From Stegostoma tigrinum (taxonomy: Eukaryota), in contig NC_081371.1 in the NCBI RefSeq assembly GCF_030684315.1, positions 4,109,550-4,173,549 of the forward strand: a DNA stretch of 64,000 nt, in the 5' to 3' direction. The notes under the pieces were generated by a model, which was not told the origin of the DNA, ran no database searches, and saw only the letters and a list, made by a program, of their open reading frames with translations. Shown here in pieces: positions 3,905 to 46,946 of this stretch. Each line of letters begins with the position of its first letter. Within the stretch, counting starts at the first letter, position 1. A program made the translations under genes and the position numbers.

Positions 3905-4356
3905 ATTCACAGGATTGAAATGAGGCAAAACAAAAGAGTGAGTGTGAAAATTTAAAATGATTGGGAAGCAAACCAGGCTGGAACACACTGCAACTTAACA
4001 TCTTTCTGATATTCATCAAAAATTCCAATGAGGTAAAATCCCAAGATGACAATCCTATAGAAGTAATGCAGGGAGTAATAACAAACATCTGCCCAGAAAT
4101 CAGTTGCTTCTAGCAGTGTTGAGCCCAGCATGGATCAGGTCTAAACAAAGATCGAGCGAGTGACCATGGATTCCAAAGAAAGTATGCATCCACTGGATCT
4201 CCCAACACATCACTGAAGGAACACCAAGAATCTTGGAGTCAGTGAAGAGGTTTTTCAAGCTGTTGGCACTGAAAGATGTTTAGAAACCTTCACTGAACAC
4301 GGTGTGGCTTAAAGAAAAAACTCCAACCTGCCTTCAGCATTGGTCTCCCTATAGGA

Positions 4357-4459
4357 GCTTTTGTGCTCCTGAGATGCTGCTTGGCCTGCTGTGTTCATCC
4401 AGCCTCACATTTTATTATCTTGGATTCTCCAGCATCTGCAGTTCCCATTATCACTATCA
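4357..4459 (+). mobile_element. Short PLE pLTR insertion (family 1) with 34-bp TSD
   Basis: Matches the pLTR at 57626-57690 plus its 3' tail; flanked by CCA[A/G]CCTGCCTTCAGCATTGGTCTCCCTATAGGA at 4323-4356 and 4460-4493. Confidence 0.9.
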
Positions 4460-4544
4460 CCAGCCTGCCTTCAGCATTGGTCTCCCTATAGGAATCTCCT
4501 CGTACGCTGTCAGGATAAAAACCTAGCAGGAGCTGAAATACGCG

Positions 4545-4687
4545 ATAACAAGGTGTGGGGCTGGACGAACACAGCAGGCCAAGCAGCATCAGAGGAGCAG
4601 GAAGGCTGACGTTTCGGGCCTAGTGTTCATCCAGCTCTACACCTTGTTATCTCAGATTCTCCAGCATCTGCAGTTCCTACTGTCTCA
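4545..4687. mobile_element. Short fold-back PLE pLTR insertion
   Basis: Minus-oriented pLTR (gataacaaggtgtggggctgg...gacgtttcgggcctag) joined to plus-oriented pLTR plus tail; flanked by GA[G/A]CTGAAATA repeats. Confidence 0.85.
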
Positions 4688-5849
4688 TGAACTGAAATAA
4701 GGAGACTTGAAAAAGGCACACTCTGTCAAGCTGCACTGTTGCACCCCCCACCACGTGTTTATTCAGCTTTATTTAAAACACCTACTGTTTTAACGATGGC
4801 TTATATCAAATCCTTTACTGGTGATGCGGACAGCTTGCAGTCATTGGCAGAAACTTTCTGGAATCCGCCCAGGCTATTGAGAATCACTCTCTCTATCAGT
4901 GATGCACAATCCTTTTGCAATGAAAATCCCTGATAAGGAAGGGGTGGCAGAGGTGGAATATTGAAACTGTTAGGTGGAGTGAGCCCTTCGACCTTACCAA
5001 TTTTTTAAACCATCTGCTCACTCACTGACCAGCTCTCCTACATTCAAGTCTAAATCGTTCATATACAGCAGATCTTCGTTTTCACCGAGACCTTGTTCTT
5101 ACGAAACGGCACTCTCGATAAACCGGCAAATAATACATACCTCAAAAACCGCATTACTGCACTATTCTGTCTGATTATTACAGCGTATTTTTTCATTTAC
5201 CTCAATGTAAATACTTATTTGTTTTTCGATCGAATGGCCTTGCGAAATATCAACAGCTGATTCAATTACTGTGATGTCCCAGTAGTCAGTTGAGGGTGAG
5301 AGTTAGAAGGCCCTCTGCTGGTTAAGTTTTATTTAAGGCAAGATTGCATTATTTGTTTAAGTGATCTATGTTATAAATAAAGTATAATAGTGCTGTGTAT
5401 AACCCCTGCACCACGTTTCTTCTATTTGGTGTGTGTTTTCACAACGGTTACATGAGCTTCTTGCTCAAGCGGATTATTTGACCAACCGGCGCTTTCCTGG
5501 TCCCGTAGGTGCCGGATAATTTAAAAAAGTTTATTTTTTAGCATACACAGCGAGGGGCGCAACACTGATCCCTGCGGAACCTGACTGGACATCGATTTCC
5601 AATCTCTTGACTATTACCCTCTGCTTCCGGCCACTCAACGTGGATTCTGGATTCAACGTGCCAACTTTCCTTGGATCCCATGAACTCTTTCAGAGAGTCT
5701 CTTATAGTCTCGACCTGAGGAGTGAGAAGAAGACACAATTAACGTTCCGGGTCCGGTAGAACACTTTGTTTTTACTTCCGATCTCTAACAGTGCTTTATT
5801 TTTACAGCAGCAGAGTATTTGACTATTTTACAGGTGTAAAGGCATTTCT

Positions 5850-6145
5850 AAAGGAGGGAGTGCAATGCTGCAAAAGAACTATCAAGCTCTAGATGAGTTG
5901 AGTCCTTCCTATGCTTTTGTGTGGATTTGAAAGGAACCCTGAAAGAAAAGCAATAGAGCCCCTCCTTGTCCCCGGGTCAATATTTAATCGTGTGCTAAAT
6001 CAAAGCTTTCCCTGATCATTATCATATTGCCAATTGTGGGATCTTGCTGTGCACAAATTTAGCAGCGAGAATTTCAACGTGCTGCCTTTCTGCCTCTGAA
6101 ATGTTTTCGAATGTCCCGAAACCGGTGCCACTTAAATGCAGGTTA
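5850..6145 (+). mobile_element. Ancient DeuSINE/SacSINE1-like SINE relic
   Basis: 'gggagtgcaatgctg...tcaatattta...gggatcttgctgtgcacaaatt...aaatgca' resembles copies at 29845-30130 and 32425-32760 and the Deu-domain SINE layout. Confidence 0.5.
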
Positions 6146-7780
6146 AATGTAGAGCTGGATGAACACTAGGCCCGAAAAGTCAGCCTTCCTTTTTAACCTT
6201 CTTTTGGGCAAAATGATTGACCCGCAAGTGACAATTATTATTCCGGATTTAAAACTAAAGACATTGCATTGATGTATGACAGTGAGAAAGACTCCCCCCC
6301 ATGTTACCGATAAACGCGAGCTGCACAAAGTGCAGTAAATTGCTGTAAATTGCTGTGTCCATTAACACCTCTATAAATGCCAATCCAAATAGGTCAGTTT
6401 AACACCTCATTAGTCACTAAGACAATCTAACCAGTGGAAATGCCATATCATGTGCATTCTGATTTGAGCTCCTCATTACAACCATAAACTGTTTTTTTAG
6501 ATGAATAAATTAACTTTTGTTTTGTTGTGCACTTAATACATGTAATTGTTCTGATTAGGGCATCATCCCAGTGGCTAGGGACCCACAGGTGAACTATATC
6601 TTTTTTTGAGACTGGTATAGAGAGCTACAGAATTGACGATAATCCATTAGCCATGGTATAATGCACCAGAGCTAATCTGGGATGCAAACCACATTCTGCC
6701 ATCCTTACAAAGAGCCAGTAAATATCATGCTGTCAGGCTGTTGCATTCAGACAAAAACTAATAATCAGATATATTTACAAACAAGATAATAACACAGGAG
6801 CAGTAAATCTCAGCAGGTTGCTCTCAGTGCAAATAAATTCTGAAATTATAATAGAGCAATGGCCTGTAAGCATTTAAAAATAGCTTCTTCCCCAAACTCA
6901 CCTATAGAAGGTTTGTGCTCATTTCCAAACTGGTATCAAATTGAATTAAGCTGAGATGAATTGGAGTCTGAACTCAAGGCATGTGAGGAGCCTGCATATT
7001 ATTTTGAAACCTAAGAAAGCTCTGAAAAAAGAGATGCCAATCAATCAAGTTCACCAGACAATGGCGTATTCTGGGCAAGACTCACTTAATGAGGAGCAAA
7101 TGATAACCGCAGCATATTTATGAAGGCTCTATACCAAGTAGGCTCAGATTAGCACTTCAAACAATGCTTCAACATTCTATCCAATCTAAAGGACAGTGCC
7201 TGCATTTTCAGGACAATCAAGCCTCGGGCTCCAGCTTGTATTTTAGTAAGGAAATATGACTTCCATCTTAACTCTTGTCATCGAAATTCATTGCTGCTGT
7301 TTAAATGAAGCCAAATAAGGGGAACGAAATACAGAAATCCTTCTTTGAAACACATGAAAGATCTGCTTTCACAGTAATAATGTCCCCATGAAGCACATTC
7401 TCCTTCAGGGTAAGTGTGATGCCTTAACACTGAATCTGAAGACACAAATCAGAATATTGTTTTAAAGACTAGTTGCAGTGGGTGTTTATATGCACAGATC
7501 ACTGAAAGCCAGTACATGGGCACGAAAAAAACAATCAGACCAGCCAATGAGATGTTCAGTTTATACCAAATGTTTTTGGATGTAACACGAGAGTGGAGAA
7601 AGTTATACTTTATCTTGTAAGGGTTAAATTATTTTTAAAAACTGATTCCAGAGAACTTAGCTCCTATTCTTGTAAATACAGACGATTGTTGGGCCATCTA
7701 ATCAAAATGATAAAGTCGTTCAGCATAGTAGATTCAGGGAAGCTGTTTTCACCTTGCAAGGGGAAGGGAACTAAAGCCTG

Positions 7781-8004
7781 ACAAAAAAAACTGAAAGAAC
7801 TGCGGATGCTGTAAATCAGGAACAAAAGCAGAAGCTGCTGGAATGGTTCAGCAGGTTTGGCAGCATCTGTGGAGAAAAAAAAGTTCAGAGTTAACATTTC
7901 AGATCCGGTGATCCTTCTTCAGAAGCTGAAACGTTAACTCTGATCTTTTCTTCATAGATGCTGCCTGACCTGCAGAGTTTTTCCAGCAACTTCTGTTTTT
8001 GCTC
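7781..8004. mobile_element. Fold-back PLE pLTR insertion (family 2)
   Basis: Minus arm 7781-7924 (with tail and 'ccttcttcagaa' core) followed by plus arm 'ctgaaacgttaactctg...ttctgtttttgctc'; same family as 3769-3900, 58216-58352 and 61770-61977. Confidence 0.85.
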
Positions 8005-8279
8005 ATTATATATGGAACTCAAACTTTTTTTGTCAGGATGGTGGTGGGAATCTCCACATTTAGGTTGACGTCCTGCCAACTGAATTATTCCCATATCTTT
8101 CTTGCAACTCTCAAACACTGTCATGTTTACTGACACATCAATTTGCGCGCACTCATTTACCACCAGCCGTCTTTCTTCACTCCTTCCTTCCCAGACACAG
8201 TGTGGACCCATAGACGGTAAAGTGCACAACCTTCAATGCCTCACCCAAATGCTTACTTGTGCCTTATTAGTACAGCATT

Positions 8280-8599
8280 AGGATCCCTACTGTGTGGGAA
8301 CAGGTCCTTCAGCCCAACAAGTCCACACTGAACCTCAGAACATCCCACCCAGACCCATCCCCCTATAACCCACCTAATCTGCACCTCCTTGAACACTACG
8401 GGCAATTTAGCATGGCCAATCCACCTACCCTGCACATATTTGGACTGTGGGAGGAAACCGGGGCACCCGGAGTAAACCCATGCAGACACAGGGAAAAGGT
8501 GCAAACTCCGCACAGACAGTTGCCCGAGGCTGGAATTGAACCCGGGTCCCTGGCGCTGTGAGGCTGCAGTGCTAACCACTGAGCCACCGTGCCGCCCCC
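8280..8599 (-). mobile_element. HE1-type tRNA-derived V-SINE
   Basis: Reverse complement reads GGCGGCACGGTGGCTCAGTGGTTAG (A box)...GGTTCAATTCC (B box), V domain TGTGCGGAGTTTGCAC...TTCCTCCCACAGTCCAAA, CR1-like tail. Confidence 0.93.
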
Positions 8600-8737
8600 A
8601 TACAATTGCCACAATTGGGCAATTCATGACCTCATTCTAATCACAAGCATCCGAGATATTTTGGGTACGTTTTCCACATTATCTTTAAAAGGTCACGTGA
8701 ATTAATTTCAATTCCAGGAAGAAAACGAGGGAAAACT

Positions 8738-9430
8738 AGTTACATTTTACCAGCAGCTTCCACAACGTTGAAGATAGTAAGACCTGCCAATGCTGGAGTC
8801 TGAGATAACGCCGAATGGAGCTGGAGGAACACAGGAGGCCAGGCAGCATCAGAGGAACAGGAAAGCTGACGTTTTGTGTCGGAACCCTTCTTCAGAAAAT
8901 GAATGGCTTTAAATTGAGAGGGGGACATTCAAAGACATCTAGGTGTCCTTGTGCATGAGTTACTGAAAGTAAGCAGGCAGTAAAGAAGGTGAATTGTGTA
9001 TGGGCCTTCAAAGTGAGAGGATTGGAGTCCCCACTCAAAGCGTCAGCTGTCCTGTTCCTCTGATGCTGCCTGGCCTTCCACAATGTTGAGATGTCCCAAA
9101 GTCCTTTGTAGGCAAGGAAGAGCTTTCAGATAACAGACACTGTTTTGTAATGTAGGAAACCAATTTACACCAGGCATATTTTGCAAATGATAATGTGAGC
9201 AATGTGATAATGCAAACGCTGCTTTAATGGTGTTTGTTGAGGGGTGAATATTGGTCAGGACATCTTTGTCTCTGCTCCTTTTCAAATTGTACTGAGTTAT
9301 CCTTGCAACCTGAGAAGGAAGGTGGTGCCTTAGTGAACTGTCCTATCAGACTAAGGATAGACTATTGACTATGGACTAAGGATGGCACCTGTGACATTGT
9401 AACATTTCCTCAGTGTTCTGCTGGTGTCGG
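8738..9430 (-). mobile_element. DeuSINE-like relic interrupted by a PLE insertion
   Basis: Reverse complement of the Deu-type body and tail ('gatgtcccaaagtcc', 'gttttgtaatgtaggaaac', 'tgaggggtgaatattggtcaggaca', 'gatggcacctgtgaca'). Confidence 0.55.
8772..9074. mobile_element. Composite PLE insertion: minus pLTR + CR1 fragment + plus pLTR stub
   Basis: pLTR 8772-8897, CR1 ORF2-like 8898-9040, pLTR stub 9041-9074; TSD CTTCCACAA[C/T]GTTGA at 8757-8771 and 9075-9089. Confidence 0.75.
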
Positions 9431-9929
9431 GTTAGAGCTCAGAGAGAAGAGTCATCCCAGTTAGGGCTAGGAATTGATTTTGGGCAGAAGAGCACCCCAG
9501 TCTGTCTTGTGTTTTGCCAGCCCAATGTCAACATTGATGGATTATGCAGTTCGACTGCTTTTTAGTCTTGGCTCACGTTCAGTAATAATTACCCTTTCAT
9601 TTTATGTCTTGTGGTGATTCACAATTGAATGCACACCCAACAAATGGGTATGCTTGATATTCTTTTAATTCCCTGCTTGGGATATCATTCTTTCCAATCA
9701 CGTTTTCTGTTTCATTCTTGAAGATTACCAATTGCTGATGTTTATTGATCACACTTTGGGATACTAGTTCCTTTGATGTTCCATTTCTTGTATGGAAGGT
9801 ATGAGTGATAAGAGTTTATTAGTAAATGTGGGTGATTAAGTCGGTATGGGTTGTTCAGGTAAACACTGGTAATAGAATCAAGGTGACCCAGTAGGATAAG
9901 GGAAGGCGATAGGTTTATGATGACAATCT

Positions 9930-10420
9930 GAGATGCGAATTACAGGTTTGGCTTAATAGTTAAGGTTAAGAGGTATGGTTAGTATTGGAGTTAAGCTTAG
10001 GGTTTGGATTACAGGGATGGAAACAAGGTGAGGGTCAAGATTAGTGTTAGGGTTAGGTTAAAGGTCAGATTGGAACTAGGGTTTGGAAAAAGGGTAGAGG
10101 TCAGAGTTCGAGGTAGAGTTAGGCTTAGGTTAATAATCAATGTCAGGTCTAAGGATTAGAGTCAGGGGATAGGATCAGGATGATTGTTATAGATAAGGTT
10201 AGGGTAGGATTCAATGTCGGGGTTAGGTATTTAGTTTAGAGTTGGCATTAGATTATGGTCAAGATCAGTGCTTGGATTGGAATTAAGGTTAGGGTTGGGA
10301 TGAAGGGTGAGGATCAGGATCAATGTTAGGTTCAAGACCTTTGATGGGTTAGATTAGTTTAAGCTCAGTTTTGTGGTTAGGTGTTTGGTTTAAGGTCAGG
10401 GTTGTAAGGTTGGATGTCGC
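9930..10420 (+). repeat. Decayed hexamer tandem repeat (GGTTAG/TTAGGG-like)
   Basis: Recurrent ggttag, gttagg, ggtcag, gattag units with 6-bp periodicity over about 500 bp. Confidence 0.8.
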
Positions 10421-10654
10421 TTTGATTCTATAGATAAATGGTTCAGGTTGTGAAAATCCATGGCGCGTGGTGTGAGAGCTGCTGAAGGGTGTACTGCTGG
10501 CTTAAAGACTGCCCTCTACCTGTCCACTTTCCAAGCGTTTTACAGAACACCTCCTAAACCAGTGACCTCTACCAGTGAGAAGGACAAAGGTAATGAAGAT
10601 ATGGGAAAGCTGTTCGTTGCTGGTTCCCCTGTAAGGGAATAGCTGTCTCTGTGA

Positions 10655-12235
10655 CTGTCTCATAGAGTCACAGAGTTTCATATTACAGAAGGAGGCAGTT
10701 TGGCCCATCATATCTTGACCAGCTCACGAAAGGGCTACCCAGATAGCCCTACTCTCCAGCCCCATCTATGTGGCCCTCTGACTTAATCACTTTCAAATAT
10801 GTCGCCTGCTCCTTTTGAAACCTCCAATGAAATCTCCTCCACCACTCTCCCAGGCAGTGTATTCCAAATCCTAACAATTCTGATTAAAGGAGTTTCTCTT
10901 CATCTCACTCCTAGCTCTCTTGCTGACAATCTTGAAATTGTGACCCCTAGTTACTGACATACCAACCAGTGGAAACTCAATATCCTCCTCTACCCTGTCA
11001 AAGTTGTTAATCTTTTTGAACACCTCAATAAGTCACTTCTTAATCTTCTCTGCTTCAAGGAGAAAAAAATAAACAATCTCTCTAAACATTCCCTTGTATC
11101 TAAAATCCTTTATTCCTGGCATCATCTCAGTAAATCTCCATTGAACTCTCTCCAGGGTTTGAACACCCTTCCCTAAAAAAGGTGCCCAGATCTGAACCCA
11201 ATACTCCAAATGTGGTCTGACCAATGATTTGTAGAGGTGTAGCATGAATTCCTTGCTTTTATACTCTATGCCTCTATTTATCAACCCAAGGATCCCATAA
11301 ACCTTCTTAACCACTGGCTCAACTTGCCTGGCCACCCTCAGAGAATTATGTATGTGAGCCATGAGGTCCCTCTGCTCGTATACTCCTTTCAAAGTTTGGA
11401 TTGTCTCTCCATGTTTCTTCAACCAAAATGCATTATCTCACATTTCTCTGTATTGAAATTCATCTGTGAGGTGTCTACACATTTGGCTAACTTTTATAGT
11501 CAGCGTCATCCTCATAGTTCACATTCTCCCTAGCGCAGTACCATCTGCAAATTCGGATTTTGCCCTCAACACTTATCTCCAAATTGTTTATATAAATCAG
11601 TAAAAAAAAGTTCCCAACACCGATCCCTGGGGAACACCACTTTCAACTCATCCCCAGTCTGAGAAATGGCCATCTATACTTATTCTCTGTTTCCTATCCT
11701 TTAGCCACCTTCAGATCCATACTGCCACACACCCATCAATCCCAAATAATTCTAATTTGCTAACTGACCCGCCATGTGGCATCATAAAAATCTGAAGTAC
11801 ACAACATCCACAGCAGTACCCTGATCTACTGTCTGTGCCACGTTGTCAACAAACTGCATTATATTTGTTAGACATGACCTGCCCTTGACAAAGCCATGTT
11901 GACTTTCTAGTATGAGTTGATTTTTCCCTCTTTGTATGCTTACCTTATCCTGTATGATGGCCTCCATCAGTATTCACATTATTGGTGTGAAGCTAACAGG
12001 TCTATGGTTTCCTAGGCCATCCTTTGTCCCTCTCTTAAACGACAGTGTGGCTATTACAATCCTGTAGCCTCCTGGGACTAATTCTGTGTTCAGGGACGCT
12101 TGGGAAATTTTTGGCAGTGGCCCCACACCTTGCTCCCTTACATCTCTCAAAAATCTGGGACGCCTCCCATCTGGACCTGGTGATCACTCTACCTGGAGTG
12201 CTGCCAGCCTTTTTAACATCTCTTCTTTGTTGATC
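10655..12235 (-). mobile_element. CR1 LINE, 5'-truncated, old
   Basis: ORF pieces SQHGFVKGRSCLTN (11782-11967) and LYKSLVRPHLEYWVQIWAP...LERVQWRFT (11033-11422); (CTATGA)-type tail near 10660. Confidence 0.9.
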
Positions 12236-12543
12236 ACTGCACTGCTCGGGTGCTCAACACCCACACTCTCACTGTTTCTGATCCTGCCAGTTTTCATCAC
12301 AACAAGTGCCTCTTTCCACCAAACCATTTGGCCCTCATCCGATCATTCAGTGGCATCACCAGCTGAATATTGCCAATGACAGCCATCAATAGTGAAAATG
12401 TGTCCATACTCTGTTGCTGTCCAGTCTGACGTAGTTGAGGTGGAAATCCTCAATTCATTGAAAGGAACCAGGATTTGCACCTCAACCTGCGGGGCCAAGA
12501 AAAACATGCTGTTAGGTGGGATTAGAACAGGCAGCTAGTTTAT

Positions 12544-12675
12544 CCTCTCTGATGAAGGGTCTAGGCCCGAAACATCAGCTTTTGTGCTCCTGAGATGCTG
12601 CTGGGCCTGCTGTGTTCATCCAGCCTCTCATTTCATTATCTTGGATTCTCCAGCATCTGCAGTTCCCATTATCAC
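12544..12675 (+). mobile_element. Short PLE pLTR insertion with hammerhead-like core
   Basis: ctgatgaagggtctaggcccgaaacatc at 12549-12576, full tail to ...cccattatcac; TSD CAGCTAGTTTAT at 12532-12543 and 12675-12686. Confidence 0.9.
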
Positions 12676-13637
12676 AGCTAGTTTATACAGCCAGTACAGA
12701 CATGATGGGCTGAACAGCCTCTTTGTGTGCTAACGATCCGATACATTAGGAGCCAAACATTGGAGGGAATAACATCTGCTCCAGGACGTTCTGAAACATG
12801 AAAGCTTCTGTGTAAAGTGAGGGTCAGACACCACGTGGGGGCGCTGTTTGCAATTTTGGGTGGAGCACATCAGGAAGGATCGATTGGCCAAGCAAGTCAA
12901 AGACACCACAATGTTACTTGGTTGCTTTAATAATAAGGACAGGCTGCATAGTCTTGACTTATGAGATGGAAGAGTGATCTTTTTGAAGGTGTGGATACAG
13001 AGAAACCATTTCCTTATGAACAAGGCGATATAATCCTTAAATTAGAGCCTCGGCCATTTAGAGTGAGTGAAAAACTAGGAACCTTTTGCCATGGTAATGG
13101 ATAATGGAAATTTGCAGCTGAGAAAGATACTCTGAATTCTGGGGGAGAATTGGAGCTTTCAAGATGAAACTCATTCGATGAAGAGATCATGAGATAGAGC
13201 GTGGCATAAAAACAGATTTGGTGTGCAAGTCAGTCGTGGACTAAGATATGAGAGGCTTAATGGGCTTATTCCTAAGTTTTCATGCTTTTGTAGTTTTAAC
13301 AGGTCCAAATAGGATTTATTTTCCCTGTTTACATCTGCCCTCTAACACTTGTACATGTAGTTTTTTGGTATTTCCTGTGTAAAATAAACAGGCAACGCGG
13401 AGAAAATTCTACAACTGAGTGTCTCTGGTGAGTGGATCAGGAACATGCAGATGCAATTTAGCCCGCATTGTGAACAGACTGGAAACATAACCCCCTCCAG
13501 TGAGAGTTCAGTAAGAGAGACAAGCTGCAGGAGTTACAATCAATAATGCTTGTGTAATTTGATTCCCAGGCCATACTTCTTGGATAGGCAAAAATGTTCC
13601 AACTGCTCACTCCTTCACAGATTAGAAAGACATTTCT

Positions 13638-15747
13638 AGAACATAGAACATAGAACAGTACAGCACAGAACAGGCCCTTCAGCCCACGATGTTGTGCCGA
13701 CCATTGATCCTCATGTATGCACCCTCAAATTTCTGTGACCATATGCGTGTCCAGCAGTCTCTTAAATGTCCCTGATGACCTTGCTTCCACAACTGCTGCT
13801 GGCAACGCATTCCATGCTCTCACAACTCTCTGTGTAAAGAACCCGCCTCTGACATCCCCTCTATACTTTCCTCCAACCAGCTTAAAACTATGACCCCTCA
13901 TGTTAGCCACTTCTGCCCTTGGAAATAGTCTCTGGCTATCAACTCTATCTCTGCCTCTCATTATCTTGTATACCTCAATTAGGTCCCCTCTCTTCCTCCT
14001 TTTCTCCAATGAAAAAAGTCCGAGCTCAGTCAACCTCTCTTCATAAGATAAGCCCTCCAGCCCAGGCAGCATCTTGGTAAACCTCCTCTGAACCCTCTCC
14101 AAAGCATCCACATCTTTCCTATAATAGGGCGACCAGAACTGGACGCAGTATTCCAAGCGCGGTCTAACCAAAGTCTTGTAGAGCTGCAACAAGATCTCAC
14201 GACTCTTAAACTCAATCCCCCTGTTAATGAAAGCCAAAACACCATATGCTTTCTTAACAACCCTGTCCACTTGGGTGGCCATTTTAAGGGATCTATGTAT
14301 CTGCACACCAAGATCCCTCTGTTCCTCCACACTGCCAAGAATCCTATCCTTAATCCTGTATTCAGCTTTCAAATTCGACCTTCCAAAATGCATCACCTCG
14401 CATTTATCCAGTTTGAACTCCATGTGCCACCTTTCAGCCCATCTCTGCAGTCTGTCAATGTCTCGCTGCAGCCTACAACAGCCCTCTACACTGTCATTGA
14501 CACCTCCAACCTTTGTGTCGTCTGCAAACTTGCTGACCCATCCTTCAATCCCCTCATCCAAGTCATTAATAAAAATTACAAACAGTAGAGGCCCAAGGAC
14601 AGAGCCCTGTGGAACACCACTCACCACTGACTTCCAGGCAGAATATTTTCCTTCTACTACCGCTCGCTGTCTTCTGTTGGCCAGCCAGTTCTGTATCCAG
14701 ACAGCTAAGTTCCCCTGTATCCCATTCCTCCTGACCTTTTGAATGAGCCTACCATGGGGAACCTTATCAAATGCCTTGCTGAAGTCCATATACACCACAT
14801 CCACAGCTCGACCCTCATCAACTTTTCTAGTCACATCCTCAAAGAACTCGATAAGGTTTGTGAGGCATGACCTGCCCCTCACAAAGCCGTGTTGACTGCA
14901 TTTAATCAAGCCATGATCTTCCAGATGGTCATAAATCCTATCCCTCAGAATCCTTTCTCACACCTTGCAGACGACAGACGTGAGACTTACTGGTCTGTAA
15001 TTGCCGGGGATTTCCCCATTTCCTTTCTTGAAGAGAGGAATTACACTTGCCTCTCTCCAGTCCTTAGGTATGACTCCAGTGGAGAGCGAGGATGCAAAGA
15101 TCTTCGCGAGTGGCGAAGCAATTGCATTTCTCGTTTCCCAAAGCAGCCAAGGACAAATCTGGTCCGGGCTTGGCGACTTGTCAATCTTAATGTTTGACAA
15201 AATTTTCAGCACATCAGCTTCCTCTATCTCTATCCGTTCCAGCATGCACGCCTGCTCTTCAAAGGTTTCATTCACTACAAAGTTCGTTTCTCTCGTAAAG
15301 CCAGAAGCAAAAAACTCATTTAGGGCTTCCCCTACCTCCTCAGACTCCACACACAAGTTCCCTATGCTATCCCTGATCGGCCCTACTCTTTCTTTGACCA
15401 TTCTCTTATTCCTCACATAAGTGTAAAATGCCTTTGTGTTCTCCCTAATCCGTTCTGCCAAGCCTTTCTCGTGCCCCCTCCTGGCTCTCCTCAGACCATT
15501 TTTGAGCTCCTTCCTCGCCTGCCTGTAGTCCTCTAGAGCTGAGCTTGACCCTAGCTTCCTCCACCTTATGTAAGCTACCTTCTTCCTTTTGACGAGAAGC
15601 TCCACCGCTCTCGTCATCCAAGGTTCCTTTATCTTACCCCTTCTTGCCTGTCTCAGAGGGACATATTTATTTATCACTTGCAACAACTGTTCCTTAAACA
15701 GCCTCCACATGTCTATAGTGCCTTTACCATGGAACAATTGCTCCCAG
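13638..15747 (-). mobile_element. Young CR1 (HER1-like) LINE, 5'-truncated
   Basis: Continuous ORF2 homology; 3' microsatellite tail (AGAACAT)n at 13638-13657. Confidence 0.96.
13725..15747 (-). pseudogene. CR1 ORF2 reverse transcriptase region, single in-frame TGA at 14958-14960
   Basis: Motifs NYRPVSLTSVVCK, SQHGF..GRSCLTNLIEFFE, YMDFSKAFDKVPH, GVPQGSVLGP, FADDTK; ORFs 14958-15782 and 13725-14909 are in the same frame; no endonuclease domain or start. Confidence 0.93.
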
Positions 15748-15978
15748 CCTGTCCTGAATGTTGGTGAATTGTGCTGCACCACAAAATTACAGGCAATGGT
15801 TTGGGATTCCTTACAGAGCTTTAGAGAAATCCAGGGGTGTGAAATATTCAGTCACAAAGAAGGCACATTCACAAAGCCAAAGGCTTAAATTATAACTTAG
15901 TTAAAAGTACACAATGAAGGACACCAGTTTACAGTGGGTGGCCAGATGACACTAAACTTTTTTAGCGTCTCCTTTCTG

Positions 15979-18955: not shown

Positions 18956-18976
18956 ATTTTCCATCGCATTCCTGCG

Positions 18977-35050: not shown

Positions 35051-35257
35051 TAAAAAATTCAAAATCCCTACCCATGACCCTCATGATTTTATAACCTCTG
35101 TAAGTCACCCCTCAGCCTCTGACACTCCAGGGAAAATAGCCCCAGCCTAGTCAGCGCCTCCATATAGCTCAAACCCTCCAACACTGGCAACATCCTTGTA
35201 GTTTCTTCCTGAGCCCTTTCAAGTTTAACAACATATTTCCTCTAGCATTTGCAACAA

Positions 35258-36257: not shown

Positions 36258-36830
36258 AGAAATACCTCCCGTGGAGGCCTGACTCTGGTCACCAAGTTAC
36301 CCCTTATTTATACACATACAGTACATGGATTCTGACTGGGCTAGCTTAGAGCCGGCTCCCAGAGGCAGTAGAGCCTCTGAATGAGTAAAACTTTTCTCTG
36401 AAGCATCTTCCAAGAATGCCCACCATGAGGAAGCTCTTCCTCCCTCCGAATTGGCCTCAGTGGATCTCTCTCCCACAGCAACCTGTGGGCGATCTCCTTC
36501 GCCCTGGATCTCTTCCACCTATCTTCCCCCAACCCCAACCTGCATTTGTTTCTGAGCTCTCTGCCCCCTTCCCGGTCCTGATGAAGGGTGTGAACCCAAA
36601 TGTCAACTTTCCTGCTCCTCCGATGCTGCCTGACCTGCCGTATTCCTCCAGGTCCACACTGAATCAACAGTAACTTCCAGCATCTGCAGTTCTTACTATC
36701 TCTGAGAGCCTCTGACACTTCTGTTTATATCTGTCAGCCAGAGCTCCCTGATTGGACCAGGTTAACAGCCCCAATCTGGAAACTCATGTCCCATATGGTC
36801 CGCCTTGCTGACCTCGTTCCAATCACTACA
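36258..36830 (-). mobile_element. Solo LTR (short family) interrupted by a PLE
   Basis: Reverse complement of the 63247-63470 layout; ends ...aatcactaca; CCCCC on both flanks. Confidence 0.8.
36381..36704 (+). mobile_element. PLE 3' fragment with pLTR
   Basis: ctgatgaagggtgtgaacccaaatgtcaac decayed core, tail ...gcagttcttactatctc; TSD AGAGCCTCTGA at 36370-36380 and 36705-36715. Confidence 0.8.
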
Positions 36831-37169
36831 CCCCCATCCTTGGCTATGATTAAACATGGCAATTTTCCTCTTGCTACATGAGGCCTCCAGACCTCAACCC
36901 TTCTGTCACCATGGTTACTGGAGCCGCTGGGGCCATTGGAAGTGATTCTCTTTATGATTCAGGAATTCACTTTAAAAGGGAGACCCCTCTGTTCCACCCA
37001 TGGCCATACTCAGAGGTCCTTTACAAAGCCAGCAGGACCTGCCTATGCATCAGCTGGTGTTGGGATTGGCCACAATATTCGAGTGATCCCTCCTCACCCC
37101 CTCACTAGGGCATTGATTGGCTGGCCACCATGTGATCTGGGGAAGTGCTGGCCTATTACGTAGTTCCCT

Positions 37170-37855
37170 TAGCTAGTGATTAGCAACAGCTGACCAGCAG
37201 CCTGTGGTTACATGTTCAAATCACATCACGGCACATAGTGGAATTTAACTTCAACTTATAAACCTAGAATGTCACACAATAGTCTACGGTGGCTCAGTGA
37301 TTAACACCGCTGCCCCACAGTACCAGGGAACTGGGATCAATTCCACCCTTGGGCGATGGTCTGTGTGGAGTTTGCACATTCTCTCCATGTCTGTGTGGGT
37401 TTCCTCCCACAGTCTGAAGATGTGCAGGCTAGGTAGATTGCCCAATGTATTCAGTGGTGCGTGGATTAGCCATGGGAAATGTAAAGTAATGGGATCAGGT
37501 GGAGAGGGGGCTGGGATGCTCTACCAGGATTAGTGCAGACCTGACAGATCGAATGGCCTCTCCCTCCCTGCACTGTAGGAATTTTATGATTCTATTCCAG
37601 TCTTACTAATGGTGCCATGAAACTAACATTGATTGTTGTCAAACCCATCTGATTCGCTAATGCCCTTTAAGGAAGGAAATCCTCCATCCTTGCATGACCT
37701 GGCTTTCATGTGACTTCAGACGCAAAGCAATACAGCCAACTCTTCAATGCTATCTGAATGGCCCTAGCAAGCCAGTGAGTACAAGATCAATTATGGACCG
37801 GAAATAAATGCTTGTCGAGCCAGTGATATCCACATCCCACAAAAGAATATGAAAA
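37170..37855 (+). mobile_element. SINE family 3 interrupted by an HE1-type SINE (37286-37594)
   Basis: Head with gttcaaatc B-box at ~37214, HE1 insert, then the family 3 body resumes at ~37597. Confidence 0.7.
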
Positions 37856-38036
37856 ATATTTAGTTGTTTGTTTCTGGGGCCTAAGGTGAGATGGCTATTG
37901 TGTGTACTGAATCTAACACAACAAATTTACAACCAGACTACAGAGTGTTTTGCACAATTTCCTGGGTTCGACATTTGTCTGCCTAATAATAAAATATAGT
38001 TTCTTCATTTGAAAGCAAAACTAATTTGATTGTTTT

Positions 38037-38482
38037 TAAGACCATAAGACCATAAGACATGGGAGTGGAAGTAAGGCCATTCGGCCCATTGTGTCCACTC
38101 CACCGTTTAATCATGGTTGATGGGCATTTCAACTCCACTCACCTGCACTCTCCCCGTAGCCCTTAGTTCCTTGTGAGATCAAGAATTTATCAATCTCTGC
38201 CTTGAAGGCATTTAATTTCCTGGCCTCCACTGCACTCACCACTCTCTGGCTGAAGAAATATCTCCGCATTTCCGTTCTAAATTGACCCCCTCTAATTCTA
38301 AGGCTGTGCCCACGGATCCTAGTCTCCCCGCCTAATGGAAACAACTTCCCAGTGTCCATCCTTTCTAAGCCATGCATTATCTTGTAAGTTTCAATTAGAT
38401 CTCCCCTCAACCTTCTAAACTCTAATGAATACAATCTCAGGATCTTCAGCCGTTCATCATATGTTAGGCCTACTATTCCAGG
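38037..38482 (-). mobile_element. CR1 3' fragment
   Basis: YSLEFRRLRGDLIETYKIM...RGHSLRIRG..FFSQRVV; (TAAGACCA)n tail. Confidence 0.9.
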
Positions 38483-39268
38483 GCAATTTTCAGTGTTACT
38501 TGGAAATAAGGACTAGATGACAAATTTCAAAAAGATTTATTCAGCTCAGATTTGATTAAGTCTTTCTTTTCTTAAGATGAAACAGGAGTCTGCGCCTGTG
38601 TTTATGATGGTCTAAAAATAGACATGAATTCTCACATTTATCAGTGGGCGAAAATGAACGATGATAAATTGATTGTCACTCTACAACAAACCTGATTTTC
38701 TTTCCTATTGACTTCGATTGAAGAACAGTCATAGGTTGTTGATTTGTCTTGTAATAAAAAGGAAAATTAAGCCACAGATAGAGAAAAAATAGCAGTTTCC
38801 CTTCATTTAAAATTAGAAATGCACTCTAATTCTCAGAGTGTGATTTAAGCTGAGAGGGGAAAGAGAAACAGGCTATATTTCTTCATTTTAATTTCTGTGC
38901 AAATAAAGATTTGTATATTGAACATAAGTAAAGTTCTTTTTGCATTAAATGATGATTTGTAAAATTGTACTAATAGTTAGTGAGGATAAACATTCTCATT
39001 GTCAATACATAAGAGCAGAAAAGGCACGGGTAGATAGAGAGGCAAACAGAGAGACAAAGAAAGAGAGAGAAAATGTCGGAAGAAGATAAAGGGATTGACA
39101 TTTTAGAGGAACAAACATCTAACGCAACACACTTTCCGAAATTTCATAGAGAGTTCTGCACATGCTTAATTCCAGAATATTCCATGGCTGGTCTTTGTTG
39201 CTGACAAACATCAATCATCAACTAATAAGCCAACCCTACTTACTACATCAAACTAACAAATATCAAAT

Positions 39269-39373
39269 TCTGAAGAGGAGTCATATTCAACTTGAAGCTT
39301 TAACTCTGTTTTTGACTCTATAAATGCTGCCAGATCTGCTGAGTTTCTCCAGCTTTTTGTCTTTGTATTTCAA
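39269..39373 (+). mobile_element. Decayed PLE pLTR (family 2)
   Basis: ttctgaagagg...ttgaagctttaactctg...atgctgccagatctgctgagtttctccagc. Confidence 0.7.
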
Positions 39374-39407
39374 ATACCTAGTTACAACTGTTATCACACT
39401 GCACTTC

Positions 39408-39762
39408 ATGGCACAGTGGTTCAATGGTTAGCATTGTGCCCTCACAGTCCCAGCGACCTTGGTTTGATTCCAGTCTTAGTTGACTGTCTGTGTGAGCTTT
39501 CATGTTCTCCCCGTGTTTAATTTCCTCCAGATGCTTTGGTTTTCTCTGACAGTCCAAAGATTTGCAGGTTAGTGTGGATTGGCCATGCAAAATTGCTCAT
39601 AGTGTCCAGGGATGTGCGGGCTAGGTGGATTAGCCATGGGAAATGCGGGATTGTAGGGTTAGGGTTGGGGGATGGGTCTGGGTGGGATGCCGTTCAGAAG
39701 GTCAGTGTGGACTCAATAGGCTGAATAGCCTGATTCAACACTGTCAGGATTCTATGATTCTA
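39408..39762 (+). mobile_element. HE1-type V-SINE
   Basis: ggcacagtggttcaatggttagc, V domain, ggattctatgattcta tail. Confidence 0.88.
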
Positions 39763-40082
39763 CATTTCAAAAGTGGTAAGTAATAATAATTAAACACAGA
39801 TGGAAGAAGTATATATATCCAATTTAATTAAATTTTCACTGACAATACACACAGGGGATTTCCTTCCTGACTGACTGCAATCCTTGTGGTTTACTGTTGA
39901 ACAGACAGAGGTATGCGTTTCTAAACCTCTGAGAATGTGTGATCAATTTAAAATTACCAGCAGCAGATTTTGTGGGCTTGGACTAGATTATTTGTTTGAA
40001 AGATATCTCATTATGTCAGTCATGTACCACACGTTCAAGAAATGCACAATTATAGAAGATAAGGCATGATTACAAGAAAATC

Positions 40083-40575
40083 TGAAATAACTCCACAGAG
40101 GCTAGGATTCTGTCGTTGGGACACCCTCTATTTACATGTGGAGAGTCCTTGCCACTGATCCAGCTCTCTGAGAGAACAGAACCTCTCACACTCACAGAGT
40201 AGAATCCCTACAGTGTGGAAGTAGGACCTTTGGCCCAACATATCCACACCAACCCTCAGAACATCCCACCCAGACCCAGACCCATCCAAATCCCCCTATA
40301 AGCAACATAATCTACACACCCATGAACACTATGGCAAATTTAGCGTGGCCAATCCACCTAATCTGCACATCTTCGGACTGTGGGAGGAAACTGGGGCACC
40401 TGGAGTCAGTCAGTCACCCGAACCTCCTGGAGCTGTGAGGCAGCAGTGCTCACCACTGAGCCACCATGCCGCCTCTGTTTATATCTGTCAGCCAGGACTC
40501 CCTGATTGGACAAGGTTAATAGCCTCAGTCATGGTACTCATATTTTATGAGGTCCACGTGGTTGACCTCATTACA
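40083..40575 (-). mobile_element. Solo LTR (short family) interrupted by an HE1 SINE (40194-40473, minus)
   Basis: tgaaataactccacagaggc...acctctcacactc [SINE] tctgtttatatctgtcagcc...gacctcattaca. Confidence 0.82.
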
Positions 40576-41080
40576 ATCTCCGTAGAAGCTACTTTCCACT
40601 GTTCACCTATATATTTCAGATGAGTTCAGATAGCCAGTGCCAGGTGTATGGATTGTGTAGTCTATTGAAGAGTTGACTGTTCAGCAGGCCATGTGGACAA
40701 CCAATTGTGGTTCTTGTATTAGGAGACAGGTCCAGTCTTTAGAATCAGTCTGGTAGCATTTTCTTCTTGAAAGGCAAAGGTGGAACAGGCTGTGTTTGCA
40801 GCTGTTATATTACCCCATTGTTTCGCTGCTGTCAGCCCTACATCTCTGCTTCGATAAAAGTATTTCAGTATCAGAATACCAGCAACACTTACATGATTGA
40901 CAACATCAGCGTAAATAGGATGTGGATGTTGGTTTTTCACACTTGAGGATAATTAGATGTGCCAGCTTTCCCCCATGACATTATAAACCTGAAGGCCTAA
41001 TGTACACGAGCCCATTGACTTTGCATTTTAGAGTGAGCTTTGAACAATGACAGGTGCAAATTCTGAAAAGGAGTGCTGTC

Positions 41081-41409
41081 TGAAATAACTCCACAGAGGC
41101 CAGCATCTCATCACCATGTCACCGTTTACTTACACGTGGAAAGCCCTTGACGCTGACCCTGCTAGCCCAGAGCCAGTTCTCACAGTGAAAAGGATGAAGG
41201 GTCTAGGCCTGAAACGTCAGCTTTTGTGCTCCTAAGATGCTGCTTGGCCTGCTGTGTTCATCCAGCTCCACACTTTGTTATCTAGGGTGTCTGACACTCC
41301 TGTTTATGTCAGTCATCCAGGGGTCCCTGATTGGACCAGGTTAATAGCCCCAACCAGGGAACTCATATTCTATGAGCTCCATCTGGCTGACCTCGTTCCA
41401 GTTATTACA
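41081..41409 (-). mobile_element. Solo LTR (short family) interrupted by a short PLE pLTR (41193-41283, plus)
   Basis: tgaaataactccacagaggc...aaggat [gaagggtctaggcctgaaacgtcagc...gttatct] agggtgtctgacactcctgttta...ttattaca; flanks CTGTC/GTGTC. Confidence 0.85.
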
Positions 41410-42779
41410 GTGTCTTTGCCTGTTCATTTAGGAGAAGATACCCTCTCCCCTACTCCCAAGTGTAGAATAAAATTGAACATGGAACTTTATGGAAGGTTGT
41501 CAGTATATATTGAAGTTATAAAGGTCACATGAGCACATGGCAGCCTTATAAACCATCAGTTTCCATTAAAAAAATGTGGTTTTTAAATAAATAAGACTTT
41601 CATGCCTGAATTGGGAATGGCACACATTATCCTAAGTGTTGGAATGTAATCCCCAAAAGCAATGATGAAAACAATTTCAGACAAAACTGTTAAATTTAAG
41701 TGGGTTTTGAGTCCTTGTCACTTAATTTCCTGATCATTTACCACGAAAGGTATAAAACAGCCTCTAGTAACGAAGAAGCATGCTTCCTGTGTCACCAAAT
41801 AGAAAGACATCAAAGCAACAAGACATCAGTTTGTATTTTTTAAATATTTAGAGCAACAGTGAGTCACGGAACTATTAACTTGCATTCTCATGCATTATTA
41901 AGCGATACCAGTTCATTGAGTTGCCGGGACCGAAGGAAGAATTGGAAAAGGCGAATCAGTCTTATCTTAATAAATTATGAACAAACTCGTTTTCTGGGAA
42001 GTATTTTCACAAGCTCAGAGCACCCCAAATGATTTCATATCCCAGGAGCAAACGGTAGTCACTGTTGGAATTTAAAGATGTGCAGCTGTTGGTTTGTACA
42101 CAGAATGGTTTGCTCAGTCAGCAATAATACAAATGACCAGATATAGCAGGTTTTGTTCATCCTGCTGTGTTCGTCCAGTTCCACACCTTGTTAATATTAT
42201 GGCCAACTATTTATGGTTTCAGAAGTCGATTACAGGTTCATTATTATAGAGGATGCAGTGAGAATTCTTTTCCCCATTTTAGTAGATCGGGGATATATTA
42301 TATCCTTGCTACCTCACCTTCATATCAGTTTGAGAGGCAGCAATTGTAAGGGTGCAGTGCTCCCTCAGTAACATGCTGGGAGGCTCAGCCAGGTTTTGTG
42401 AAGAAAACAGTGAAACAAGCTGTGCACATCAGCAGGTCACTCAGTTTCTGAGAGAAAAATGCAGACAATGGATTGATTCTTTGGAGAAAGAGCTGAGATG
42501 AGCAGCTCCCTGATGCATTCCCACCACTAGAGATGGTTCCAAGTGAGGCTACGAGAGAAATCTGCGACTGCTCGGTTTTTAATCGCTTGAAGCCCCAAGT
42601 AAGGGCAGATTTTTGGATTTCATCAGCTGCAGACTTGACATAAATGGAAGCCAGCAGCTAAAATGGGCCATCCATGGTATTCAATTCAAAAACACCTGAG
42701 GTCACATGTGATTCACAATCTAAACACATACTGGGATACTCAGGAATTTATGGACATTTATAGGGAGTTTATGGGATGT

Positions 42780-43700
42780 GACAATCAGTATTTTCACAGA
42801 ATCCCTGCAGAGTATGTCAGAGGGTCCCTGGAGAAGGGAGTGTGTCGGTACTTAATAGGGCGTCCTCGGCGGTGGGGGGGGGGGGGGTGTCAGTATTTGC
42901 AGGGAGTCCCCGGGTTTGCGGTGGGGGGGGGCAGTGTGTCAGTATTTACAGGGGGTCACCAGGGGGAGTATGTCAGTGTTTACAGGGGGTCCCTGGGGGG
43001 AATGTGTGAGTATTTACAGCGGGTCCCTGGGGAGGGGGTTGAAAGAGGGGTGAGGATGTCTGTAGTTACGGGGGACCCCGAGGCAGGAGTGTGTCAGTAG
43101 TTACAGGGGTCCCCAGGGAGTGTGTCACTGTTTACAGGGATCCTGGGTGAGAAAGGAGTGGTCTCAGTATTTTCAGGGAGTCCTGGGGGTGGTGTCAGTA
43201 CTTACAGGGTCCCAAGGGGCAGGGGAAGTGTGTCAGTATTTGTAGGGAGTCCCTGGGGACCATCTCAGTGTTTACAGGGGATCCCTGGGGAGGGGAGTGA
43301 GAAGTGCGCATCAGTATTTATAGGGGGGTCCCTGGGGGGAGGGGGTGTCAGTACATACAGGGGGTCCCCAGGGGGAAGTTTGTCAGTGTTTACAGGGAGA
43401 TCCTGGGGACCATCTCAGTATTTACAGGGGGTTCCAGGAGGGGGGGATGGTGGGGTGTGTATCAGTATTTACAAGAGGGTCCCTTGGGGGAGGGGGGGGG
43501 TGTCAGTACATACAGGGGGGTCCCTGGTTGGTGGGAGTAAGAGGAGCCTGTCAGTACTTAGAGGAGTGTCCCCAGGGGTAAATTATGTCAGTAATTACAG
43601 GGGGTCCCTGGGGATGTGTCAGTAGTTACAGGGTGTTGCTGAGGAGTGTGTCAGTATTTACATGGAGTCACTAAGGAATATGTTGATATTTACAGAAATT
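42780..43700 (+). repeat. G-rich minisatellite, unit about 30-40 bp
   Basis: More than 20 imperfect units of GTGTCAGTATTTACAGGGGGTCCCTGGGGG with variable G-run spacers. Confidence 0.92.
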
Positions 43701-44182
43701 CTCTGGGATTGTTTCGGTATCAGAAGGTTTCAGTTTTTAGCGAATCGATAGGAACAGCTTTTCCTGTTGATTGCTCACTGAGAACCTCCAGCTCCACACT
43801 TAGGTCTGTTACAGGATTCTACTATATGTGCATCAGTCATTAGAATGATGCTGTCCTTTTAGTTATTATTTAGCGGCCTTCTCATGGAGTAGATTCTCAG
43901 TGTTTTCAGCATATCCCTCGAGAGTGTAGCAATGTTTACCTGTGTCTCTGCTGGGGTGTAACAGTATGTGAGCGATATTGATCAATGTCAAGATAGTTGC
44001 AGTGGATCCCTGGTCTTCCTTACATCAGAGCGACATTGCCACTGCCAAATTAATAGCTATGTACAGTATTATCACGCGCAGTCAAATATCATCATCCTTT
44101 CATCTTATTCAGACTTGTTAGAAAATCTGCACGCATGGGCTGTGATCTCTGGAATAGAACAGGCAGTAGGTCCGCAATGTCA

Positions 44183-44334
44183 GTGATAATGGGGACTGCA
44201 AACGCCGGAGAATCCGAGATAACAAAGTGTGGGGCTGGATGAACACAACAGGCCAAGCAGCATCTCAGGAGCACAAAAGCTCCTAAGATGCTGCTTGACC
44301 TGCTGGGTTCATCCAGCTCCACACTTGGTTATCT
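44183..44334. mobile_element. Fold-back PLE pLTR insertion
   Basis: Minus arm gtgataatgggg...gcacaaaagct turns at 44278-44281 into plus arm gctcctaagatgctgc...ggttatct. Confidence 0.88.
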
Positions 44335-44469
44335 GGGAATTGTGGGTACTTGGTTCATTGTAATAGACACTACCTGTTGCAACAATATCACAGAGACTTG
44401 GTGGGAGAGTAAAGTAGGATCGCATGGAAGACTGAATCAATGCTAGGTTTTCACAGCAGACTTTGTACT

Positions 44470-45080
44470 AATGGTGGTGGTGAGTTGGCTTCTTGAACCA
44501 CTGCAGAGGGAGGGAATTCAGGGATTTTGAGCCAGTGACAGTGAAGGAACAGCGATATATTTTGAAGCCAGGATGGTGAGTGGCTTGGAGGGGAACTTGC
44601 AGAGGTTGATGTTCCCCTGTGTATGCTGCCCTTGTCCTTCTGGATGGACACGGTTTTGGGTTTGGAAGGTGCTGTCTGAGAATCTTTAGTGAATTTCTGC
44701 AATCCATCCGTAGATAGTACCTGCTGCTGCTACTGAGCATTGGTGGTGATGGAGGGAATGAATGTTTGTGGATGTGGTGCAAATCAAGCGGCTGCTTTGT
44801 CCTGGATGGTGTCAAGCTTCTTAAGTATCGTTGGGGCTGCACCCATCCAGGCAAGCGGGGAGTATTCCATCACACTCCTGACTTGTGCCTTGTAGGTGGT
44901 GGACAGGCTTTAGGGAGTCAGGAGTTGAGTTGCTTGCTGCAATATTCCTAGCCTCTGGCCTGCTCTTGAAGCCATTGCATTTATGTGGTGAGTCCAGTTG
45001 AGTTTGTGGGCAACGATAACCCCTAGGATGTTAATAATAGATGTTTCAGTAATAGTAACACCATTGAATGTCAAGGGGCA
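44470..45080 (-). mobile_element. Non-LTR retrotransposon (second family) 3' fragment
   Basis: INILGVIVAHKLNWTHHINAMASRAGQRLGIL; collinear with 24400-25210. Confidence 0.85.
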
Positions 45081-46318
45081 TAAATGATTGCAGAGATCCA
45101 ACAAACTACACCTCATGCACTCTGCAAAACGGTCCTTGTTAAATCACAATGTGGCTTTCCATACACCTTGAGAACATTTAAGCTCCTAAAGAACTTACTC
45201 ATTTGGAAGACAGGGTTGACATGGACACAATGTGATGATCAATGTGAGATCTGAAAGTTTGACACAGCAGCAGCAGTCCAGATGGGGAAAACATGCTGTC
45301 CACATAGGAGACCTCAAGGGAAACAGATTATTGATTACTGAGGAAAATAGGCCCTCATCATAATTATTATCTTGCGAATTACAATCAATTATTAACCTAT
45401 TCCAATCCTTTCAGACACATACACAATATTGGCAAGATTTTATTTTTGCTAAAATACATTTCCAGCCCTTAGTTTTCTTTAATATCACGGTCGGGACATT
45501 CTGTCTCACATAAAATATTTTCTGTTTGCCAACATTTTTCAGTCTGAGCAGTATCTATGAGGAAATAATAGAAGACGGCATTAGAAAATTTGCACATGGG
45601 GCAGTTAAGCTGCAATACGAAAGTTACTTAGAATCTGGAGCTCAGAAACAGGCCGTCGGTCCACTTGGTCTATCCTTAATCTTATATTCTATTAAAGCCT
45701 CCTCTCACATTAATTACTTCCTTTCCCCCTGCCTCCGTATCCTTCTGTTTCTGTCTCTCAAACATATGCAGCTAAAGCTTAACTGTATGCGACTCTAATA
45801 AGTTGCCTGGGATTTGTAATTTAAACAATAATTATATCCACCATTCACTGGCTCAGAGGAAAATATAAAGCTAAAAAGATAAAACTGCTGATTCAGAACT
45901 AGCTTCAATACAAAAGCTGAAGATTTCTTATGAATTCCAACTAATGCTGAGACTTTGTACGTTTTGCAATCAAGGGACAAAACATCTAGAAAATACAAAA
46001 AAAATGACCTGATTGTTTCTTTCTACTCCAATTCCTGGCTCCAGCTCCTTCACCAGAACACTGCTCCAGGCTCCTTTACCCAATGACTGTTCCTGAACCC
46101 TTCATCCAATCACTGCCCCAAGACTATCCATTCAATTGCTCCTCCCAAGATTCTTCATCAAAATATGCTCCTAAGTTCCCTCATCTAGCCTTTTCTCTAA
46201 GTATTATCACCCAATCACTGCTCCCTGTGTACATCCTAGTACTTCTGGCTTCCTTGTCCCCTACATTATGATCCTGTTTCTGATCCCTTATGCTGCTCCT
46301 CATTTACCGCTTTATGCC

Positions 46319-46946
46319 TGTTATGGACCAGACCGAACACCCTTTCAGATATATCAAGAACATAGCCTGGACCTGAACTTTTACCTTATTTATAGACATG
46401 TGTAAGATACTGACTTCAAGTTGTGGTCCGTTTGGTTATACCAGTTGACTTTAAGCAAAACACAGTTTATTCTTACCCCATACAGTTAAAATATATACAA
46501 AAGGAAGAGGAATTATTATCACTTCAACTCTATTGGAAAACTTAACAGAATAATAGACCATTTAACTACTAAACAACTACTGTCTCAATATAGTAACATT
46601 CCATGTACATACTCTAGGCAAAGGCAAATTCAGTTAAACAGATTGTCTCACATATGATTCTGGCAAAGGGAGAGAACCCAAGTCTTTAGCTGTAGCCAAG
46701 AGGAATTTAATAGCTTCCACAGCCAACTTCCAAACCCCAACAACTACTGAAAGCTAAACTAAAGCTTTTCTGCTCCTCTGATGCTGCCTGGCCTGTTGTA
46801 TTCCACCAGTTCCACACTGTGTTATCAAGGCCTCACAAGCTGCTTATTTTGTTAGGCTCAAATAGACAGCTCAGTGCCTCTGCCTCAATCTCTCTCCAAG
46901 AACTAACAAGGACAATTATACTTCTTAAAGCTGTAGTATTGTCACT
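46319..46946. mobile_element. Solo LTR (~665 bp family) with a short PLE pLTR at 46763-46826
   Basis: tgttatggaccag...atagcctggacct...aagcaaaacac...ggcaaattcag...cttcttaaag, collinear with 27591-28256. Confidence 0.72.

Follow-up and report, generated by a model that had tools for sequence, protein, structure and literature searches.

Does the hammerhead motif of Penelope-like elements (PLEs) cut the element's RNA in the germ line, and is the cut RNA copied back into DNA? The question is raised by 64,000 nucleotides of Stegostoma tigrinum DNA (contig NC_081371.1, positions 4,109,550 to 4,173,549, forward strand; hereafter the window), in which an earlier note, made from the sequence alone, had seen three independent PLE insertions with a boundary precisely at the predicted cleavage site of a hammerhead in the pseudo-long terminal repeat (pLTR). 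Element positions are numbered from that site, GUC|A: +1 is the A after the predicted cut (57626 of the window in an intact copy) and -1 the preceding C. Insertion boundaries were found to pile up at +1 across the genome; the pile-up is likely the footprint of PLE RNA that cleaved itself in the germ line, the reverse transcriptase (RT) having then run off the cut end.

Insertion boundaries at the predicted cut site

The 14-mer beginning at +1 has 12 matches in the window, vs. 0.7 expected. The three boundaries (4356, 46763 and 44278-44281) were found where they had been placed, within the following features (TSD, target-site duplication):

4323..4356, + strand: left TSD, 34 bp, its last base doubling as +1 of the insertion
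4356..4455, + strand: PLE copy, +1 (or +2)..+100
4460..4493, + strand: right TSD, preceded by 4 additional nt at 4456-4459
46319..46938, + strand: dispersed host repeat (a putative LTR), interrupted by the copy at 46763
46763..46826, + strand: older-subfamily PLE copy, +1 (or +2)..+64, 84% identity to the reference
44182..44281, - strand: long arm of a head-to-head insertion, +1..+100
44279..44333, + strand: short arm of the same insertion, +10..about +65, 3 nt of it shared with the long arm
12544..12675, + strand: copy from -33, of the main short-copy class (presumably from uncut RNA)
41193..41286, + strand: copy from -26
53896..54114, no strand assigned: head-to-head insertion with its turn at -28/-19, upstream of the cut

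The 34-bp TSD of the 4356 insertion was confirmed (4323-4356 vs. 4460-4493, 33/34 identical); the copy starts at +1 or +2, because the direct repeat contains the A at 4356. The copy at 46763 likewise starts at +1 or +2, because other copies of the host repeat (L059) also carry an A there; about 85 nt of the host repeat are gone and a target duplication is absent. The flanks of the insertion at 44182-44333 showed no repeat exceeding 6 nt; the 3-nt overlap of the arms (44279-44281) puts the turn somewhere within +1 to +4. The positions thus held, and "precisely" slightly overstated their exactness: each junction is ambiguous by 1-3 nt, and with such microhomology three junctions taken alone prove little. 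Three copies cited as a caveat do begin upstream of the cut (12544 at -33, 41193 at -26 and 9038 at about -7).

The earlier note had proposed setting a sharp peak of 5' ends at the cut against a flat distribution, and in the young subfamily four junction classes gave such a peak. Perfect head-to-head joins numbered 709 genome-wide at the palindrome +1..+4, vs. 47 at -5..-2 (CpG decay allowed) and 23 at +28..+31, both also 4-base palindromes; those at -16, -13 and +46, and single downstream positions, lay outside the genome-wide counts. Joins of the 44278 type (+1/+10) were found 355 times. Other starts at +1 numbered 533, vs. 36 at -2 (about 22 of the latter expected as chance spill-over from +1); these two counts require four non-consensus bases before the start, so that palindromic and +1/+10 joins are excluded. 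When 30 of the 533 loci were inspected, 22 proved to be true boundaries, and the other 8 were longer copies with a deletion or small indel. In 5 of the 30 inspected loci the copy was almost intact and altered by 1-2 nt at the cut; an indel hotspot there was considered and dropped, a rough estimate, made without a control, lying near background.

Head-to-tail restarts within -5..+8 (55 rows, tallied by eye) fell at +1 in 43 cases, with 1 ambiguous and 11 at +5..+8; after collapsing five arrays, 32 of 44 loci were at +1. This concentration has a p of 3e-17 vs. uniform. None of the 55 rows restarted at -5..-3, despite the same 1-nt overlap on offer at -5. The 43 restarts at +1 were flush (18), shared one A with the tail (16) or carried 1-2 further bases (9). 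A further 10 rows, from 6 loci, restarted at -38..-28.

Of 8,712 matches starting within -8..+9, the first 100 were counted by eye: 17 palindromic events were at +1 and 4 at -5, a class over-represented here because the filter passes it fully and random flanks at about 30%. The non-palindromic rows amounted to about 1 per position from -8 to -1, 8-9 at +1, 6 at +2, 1-3 at +3..+5, 7, 8 and 12 at +6, +7 and +8 respectively, and 5 at +9. An unselected sample, 1.0 Mb from outside the window, yielded 266 copies: 76 started upstream of -60, about 121 (about 45%) at -38..-20 with a peak at -31..-33, 2 at -7..-2, 2 at -1, 3 at +1 and about 31 at +2..+18. With the flanks of 3-kb loci added, 6 of 373 were at +1, one of them a duplicate. 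At this frequency, three such boundaries in 64 kb are a lucky cluster. The 3' ends cluster at +62..66 and +97..100 regardless of start.

How the joins form was examined at 30 of the 355 +1/+10 loci. One arm ended at +97..100 and the other at +57..73 in 24 of them, and 29 were flanked by a locus-specific repeat of 13-20 nt (lenient caller); both ends of these insertions therefore look primed, as expected if both nicks were extended. The two arms of one insertion differed by 4.0%, vs. 7.1% when shuffled (0/5000; 40 of 46 pairs usable), and their shared subfamily haplotype points to one RNA or one source. The same joins occur in at least three haplotypes and in both arm orders, with different flanking repeats, so they appear to have formed anew in each insertion. 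Two cDNAs ending at +1 would have complementary 4-nt ends, so that the perfect head-to-head class should need no trimming. Targets ending in TAGG precede several simple +1 insertions (window 4352-4358, L120, the L173 flank) and mimic the +1/+10 join; these insertions could be products of twin priming in which the second arm is very short.

The base before the start separates +1 from the main upstream start. Copies starting at -32 were preceded by G in 17/17 rows, and in 9/9 once one array had been collapsed and 6 rows dropped in which an inverted arm was a possible source of the G; the base at that position is C in 61/63 intact copies. Before +1, G was found in 8/37 rows (background 0.28; Fisher p 2e-5), and at tandem restarts in 0/32 loci at the cut vs. 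3/6 at the upstream start. An additional G at full-length L1 junctions has been interpreted as the cap in the available part of PMC11702581. Assuming that the PLE RT also copies caps, a capped transcription start is likely near -32, at the main short-copy start (-28..-34; window 57594 and equivalents), and the RNA end at +1, which shows no cap-like G, was likely uncapped, with the RT running off there. A capped second start at +1 was discarded, no G excess being seen. A splice acceptor at the AG of +1/+2 was rejected as well: +1 copies adjoin their own target duplications (4356, L120, L160, L168), and many copies start at +2 and lack the A.

The course of events may have been as follows. A capped transcript would begin near -32, and a minority would be cut at GUC|A, giving an uncapped RNA that retains the open reading frame (ORF; ATG at about +139). 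The PLE protein would nick both target strands and prime internally at about +100 and +65. The cDNAs reaching +1 could then anneal by the +1..+4 palindrome (perfect head-to-head joins), pair with +10..+12 (joins of the 44278 type), join the target with a loss of 0-18 nt (insertions of the 4356 type) or, by priming on the template once more, build head-to-tail arrays. The +1 products, without the 5' half of the ribozyme and the probable start site, would be dead ends. As a tentative extension, possible rather than probable, the hammerhead might act as a decapping switch: a cut about 32 nt after the capped start would give an uncapped full-ORF template from which the RT runs off and re-primes far more readily. 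Restarts lie at the cut in 32 tandem loci and at the capped start in 6, even though capped starts greatly predominate overall.

The element and its hammerhead

By its sequence, the element is an endonuclease-positive (EN+) PLE, with the RT followed by a C-terminal GIY-YIG domain in one frame. The intact copy and its surroundings comprise:

55882..56542, - strand: inverted partner arm of the copy at 56988-57691, ending at +100
56685..57368, + strand: 3' part of the PLE frame, with CX4CxxC linker and GIY-YIG (PF01541, E 1.4e-4, at the gathering score)
57594..57691, + strand: intact pLTR end with minimal hammerhead; putative capped start at about 57594 (-32), core from 57598, predicted cut between 57625 and 57626, end at +66

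The motif is preceded, on its own strand, by the C-terminal part of the RT, the CX4CxxC linker and the GIY-YIG domain in one frame of 414 aa, a partial and not a full-length copy, whose RVT_1 match is weak (E 0.013) and on a fragment. A Pfam search at E 0.001 returned nothing, weak matches appearing only at a looser cut-off. A pLTR with optional tail and inverted and tandem insertions, traits of EN+ PLEs, are also present. The linker fits the CX2-5CxxC pattern between RT and EN given as a Neptune/Nematis feature in the accessible text of PMC8557442.

The motif is built like a minimal type I hammerhead, with the boxes CUGANGA and GAAA, a helix II, a palindromic 15.2-16.2 and an NUH triplet; an Rfam scan gave no match at the gathering score. 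The 190 cores sorted into three sequence groups, among which the first pairs of helix I covary: TCT/AGC (91 copies), TTT/AGC (the older subfamily) and GTT/AAC (15 copies, the second family). This covariation fixes the register of the cut. Exact matches to +1..+22 of the young subfamily number 214,023 in the genome. Clean deletions of helix II via short repeats on either side recur in the young- and older-subfamily listings.

The element sequence goes on past +104 and a 135-codon frame opens at about +139 (L318), about 138 nt past the cut, so that the cut falls in the 5' leader. Around 5567 of L318 (- strand, about +105..+139) a branch-point-like motif, a pyrimidine stretch and a CAG stand just ahead of the ATG, and the leader might contain an intron, like that of D. 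virilis Penelope. Copies of the second family of PLE-type hammerheads, in which the site is GUU|A and helix I measures 3 bp, lie at 3776-3871, 7946-8009 and 61883-61946 of the window. Internally deleted elements (L034, L115, L188, L202, L274, L288), in which the first 100-250 nt of the body are joined to the 3' region between two pLTR parts, are possibly short non-autonomous derivatives. Elsewhere in the window, a degenerate minisatellite with units of 31-52 nt occupies 42869-43713, and long frames on the - strand at 13728-15851 presumably belong to a CR1/L2-type LINE, which they resemble.

Weighing the explanations

An RNA end at +1 might have arisen without a ribozyme, through an uncapped second start, a 5'-3' exonuclease blocked by protein or structure, or a host endonuclease. 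Junctions reveal an RNA end and not its chemistry, and the plateau of starts at +2..+18 fits trimming. CA is a favoured transcription start dinucleotide, and the CA at -1/+1 suits such a start. This explanation is nevertheless unlikely: the cap-like G seen at the -32 start is absent at +1, and it would be a coincidence that the end falls on the very nucleotide set by the covarying register of helix I. Alternatively, no RNA end existed at +1, the RT stopping randomly or at structure and palindrome microhomology creating the peak. All three window cases and the two largest junction classes do use an overlap of 1-4 nt, not every palindrome entered the genome-wide counts, and the signal is weak in the older subfamily and the second family; yet palindromes of equal length gave 47 and 23 joins vs. 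709, 18 of the 43 tandem restarts are flush without any overlap, and starts at -7..-2 are nearly absent (2/266). A stall at helix II would moreover be expected near -8, not at +1. Microhomology alone is largely refuted by the palindrome, start and tandem-restart counts, and this explanation is hardly tenable.

Several observations weigh against the footprint of ribozyme-cut RNA. The cut-site class is small, only three of the 266 unselected copies lying exactly at +1, and the non-palindromic starts form a step followed by a plateau at +2..+18, +1 not being the sole downstream start. The site overlaps a 4-base palindrome that favours joining, the two arms of the 44281 insertion disagree at diagnostic sites, and the matching of arms elsewhere could have come about by later conversion between them. 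The older subfamily has a modest excess at +1/+2 (about 16-18 of the 100 listed rows) amid many helix II deletions; speculatively, the U-G pair in its helix I may weaken cutting. In the second family, an equivocal 6-7 of 31 matches were at +1. Only 2 pairs of helix I are clear (3 for the second family), vs. the 4-5 bp expected, and a two-copy construct did not adopt the hammerhead fold in free-energy folding. As far as the consulted sources go, D. virilis Penelope also has a 2-bp helix I (PMC4209133) and minimal hammerheads can cleave as dimers (PMC5785218, via the review PMC6765202). In the available text on the green anole Poseidon element PAc, uncut RNA was the main in vitro substrate and cleavage was not needed, and no RNA reads began at the cut site (PMC11167929). 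For the young subfamily, we nonetheless consider the copying of self-cleaved RNA well supported by the junction evidence.

The earlier note had further proposed that the insertions are cDNA copies of a self-cleavage product of about 100 nt and possibly a ribozyme-processed, non-autonomous class of mini-retroelements. An RNA 5' end at the predicted cut agrees with the junctions; the 100-nt product and the mini-element class are not supported, since the joins appear to form anew, some +1 units enter the element body and the 3' ends match known internal priming sites. A distinct cut RNA of about 104 nt, linear or circular, amplified as its own mini-element, would account for the head-to-tail arrays of +1..+104 units (C1, C2, C3, C6, C17) and for a few joins with additional A's, as an adenylated 3' end near +104 would leave. 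It is very unlikely, because joins vary inside a single array (L173) and recur across several haplotypes in either arm order, some +1 units extend beyond +104 (as far as about +125 in L023 and about +270 in L162), the ends at about +65 and +100 terminate copies of every other start too, and the units lack the half of the ribozyme upstream of the cut as well as the probable start site. A short master with fixed ends and a fixed join, as in SINEs or MITEs, was not found, and the +1..+104 units lack the positions -29..-1 that a non-LTR retrozyme would hold. L149 was rejected as a +1 copy entering the body, which there belongs to the upstream unit. A 100-nt RNA is not needed to explain the arrays, although a short adenylated RNA is possible. 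Two other arrays are retrozyme-like: L326-L328 (G000:C3:84702546-84702862) and L331-L332 (G000:C17:15371547-15371708) are made of tandem units that span -32 or -30 to +104, contain the complete hammerhead and are joined in identical fashion (in one case with additional A's and a G).

Comparison with known systems

The element is of a known kind, and the junctions are new evidence on the open question whether and why PLE hammerheads cut in vivo. Germ-line records of cut RNA in this genome apparently run into the thousands, at an estimated rate of roughly 2% of the about 214,000 exact young copies. Germ-line cutting followed by copying back to DNA is the step that earlier RNA data had failed to show. 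The junction test needs only a genome and is applicable to any PLE family; should the decapping switch be true, junction counts would give a readout of ribozyme activity in vivo for any such family from the genome alone. In the literature searched, no mapping of PLE insertion ends to the hammerhead cut was found, most subscription papers and Supplementary Fig. S2 of the PAc report (PMC11167929) lying outside the search.

According to the available text on PAc (PMC11167929), that element likewise has a hammerhead in its pLTR and two internal priming sites, which define the pLTR end and the tail and are matched here by the 3' ends at +62..66 and +97..100; both strands were nicked and extended in vitro, in line with the two-primed insertions proposed above. 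The PAc cut is 26 nt inside the ORF, whereas the predicted one here precedes the ATG by about 138 nt and is the site of hundreds of genomic joins, in contrast to the PAc RNA data. Neptune-type EN+ PLEs, in the accessible parts of PMC4209133 and PMC8557442, share the RT, the CX2-5CxxC linker, the C-terminal GIY-YIG, inverted and tandem insertions and a 30-40 bp tail, and their minimal hammerhead also has a loopless palindromic helix III and an additional base before helix II. Its activity in vitro was low (PMC4209133) and its function was called unclear (PMC8557442). Those parts of the two papers describe the motif without placing insertion ends on the cut.

Non-LTR retrozymes (10.64898/2026.07.22.740005, as far as its available text goes) are likewise short, PLE-derived and sometimes tandem; each of their units holds a whole hammerhead, which +1 units do not, and the two arrays of -32/-30..+104 units fit their definition. 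The closest precedent is R2 with its HDV-like ribozyme, where junctions track the ribozyme cut; in the part of PMC3774820 available, R2 needs the cut to exit the rRNA co-transcript, so that full-length copies come from cut RNA. Here, unlike in R2, 1-2% of copies start at the cut and most appear to come from uncut RNA.

In the twin-priming model of L1, both target strands prime, giving inversions. L1 also resembles the present element in its microhomology-joined inversions and in the additional G left by capped starts (PMC11702581, available part). Inverted PLE copies can be explained in a similar manner, as two cDNAs primed at two internal sites. Unlike in L1, the two arms here are copies of one and the same stretch, begun at two fixed internal sites, and they meet at the predicted ribozyme cut.

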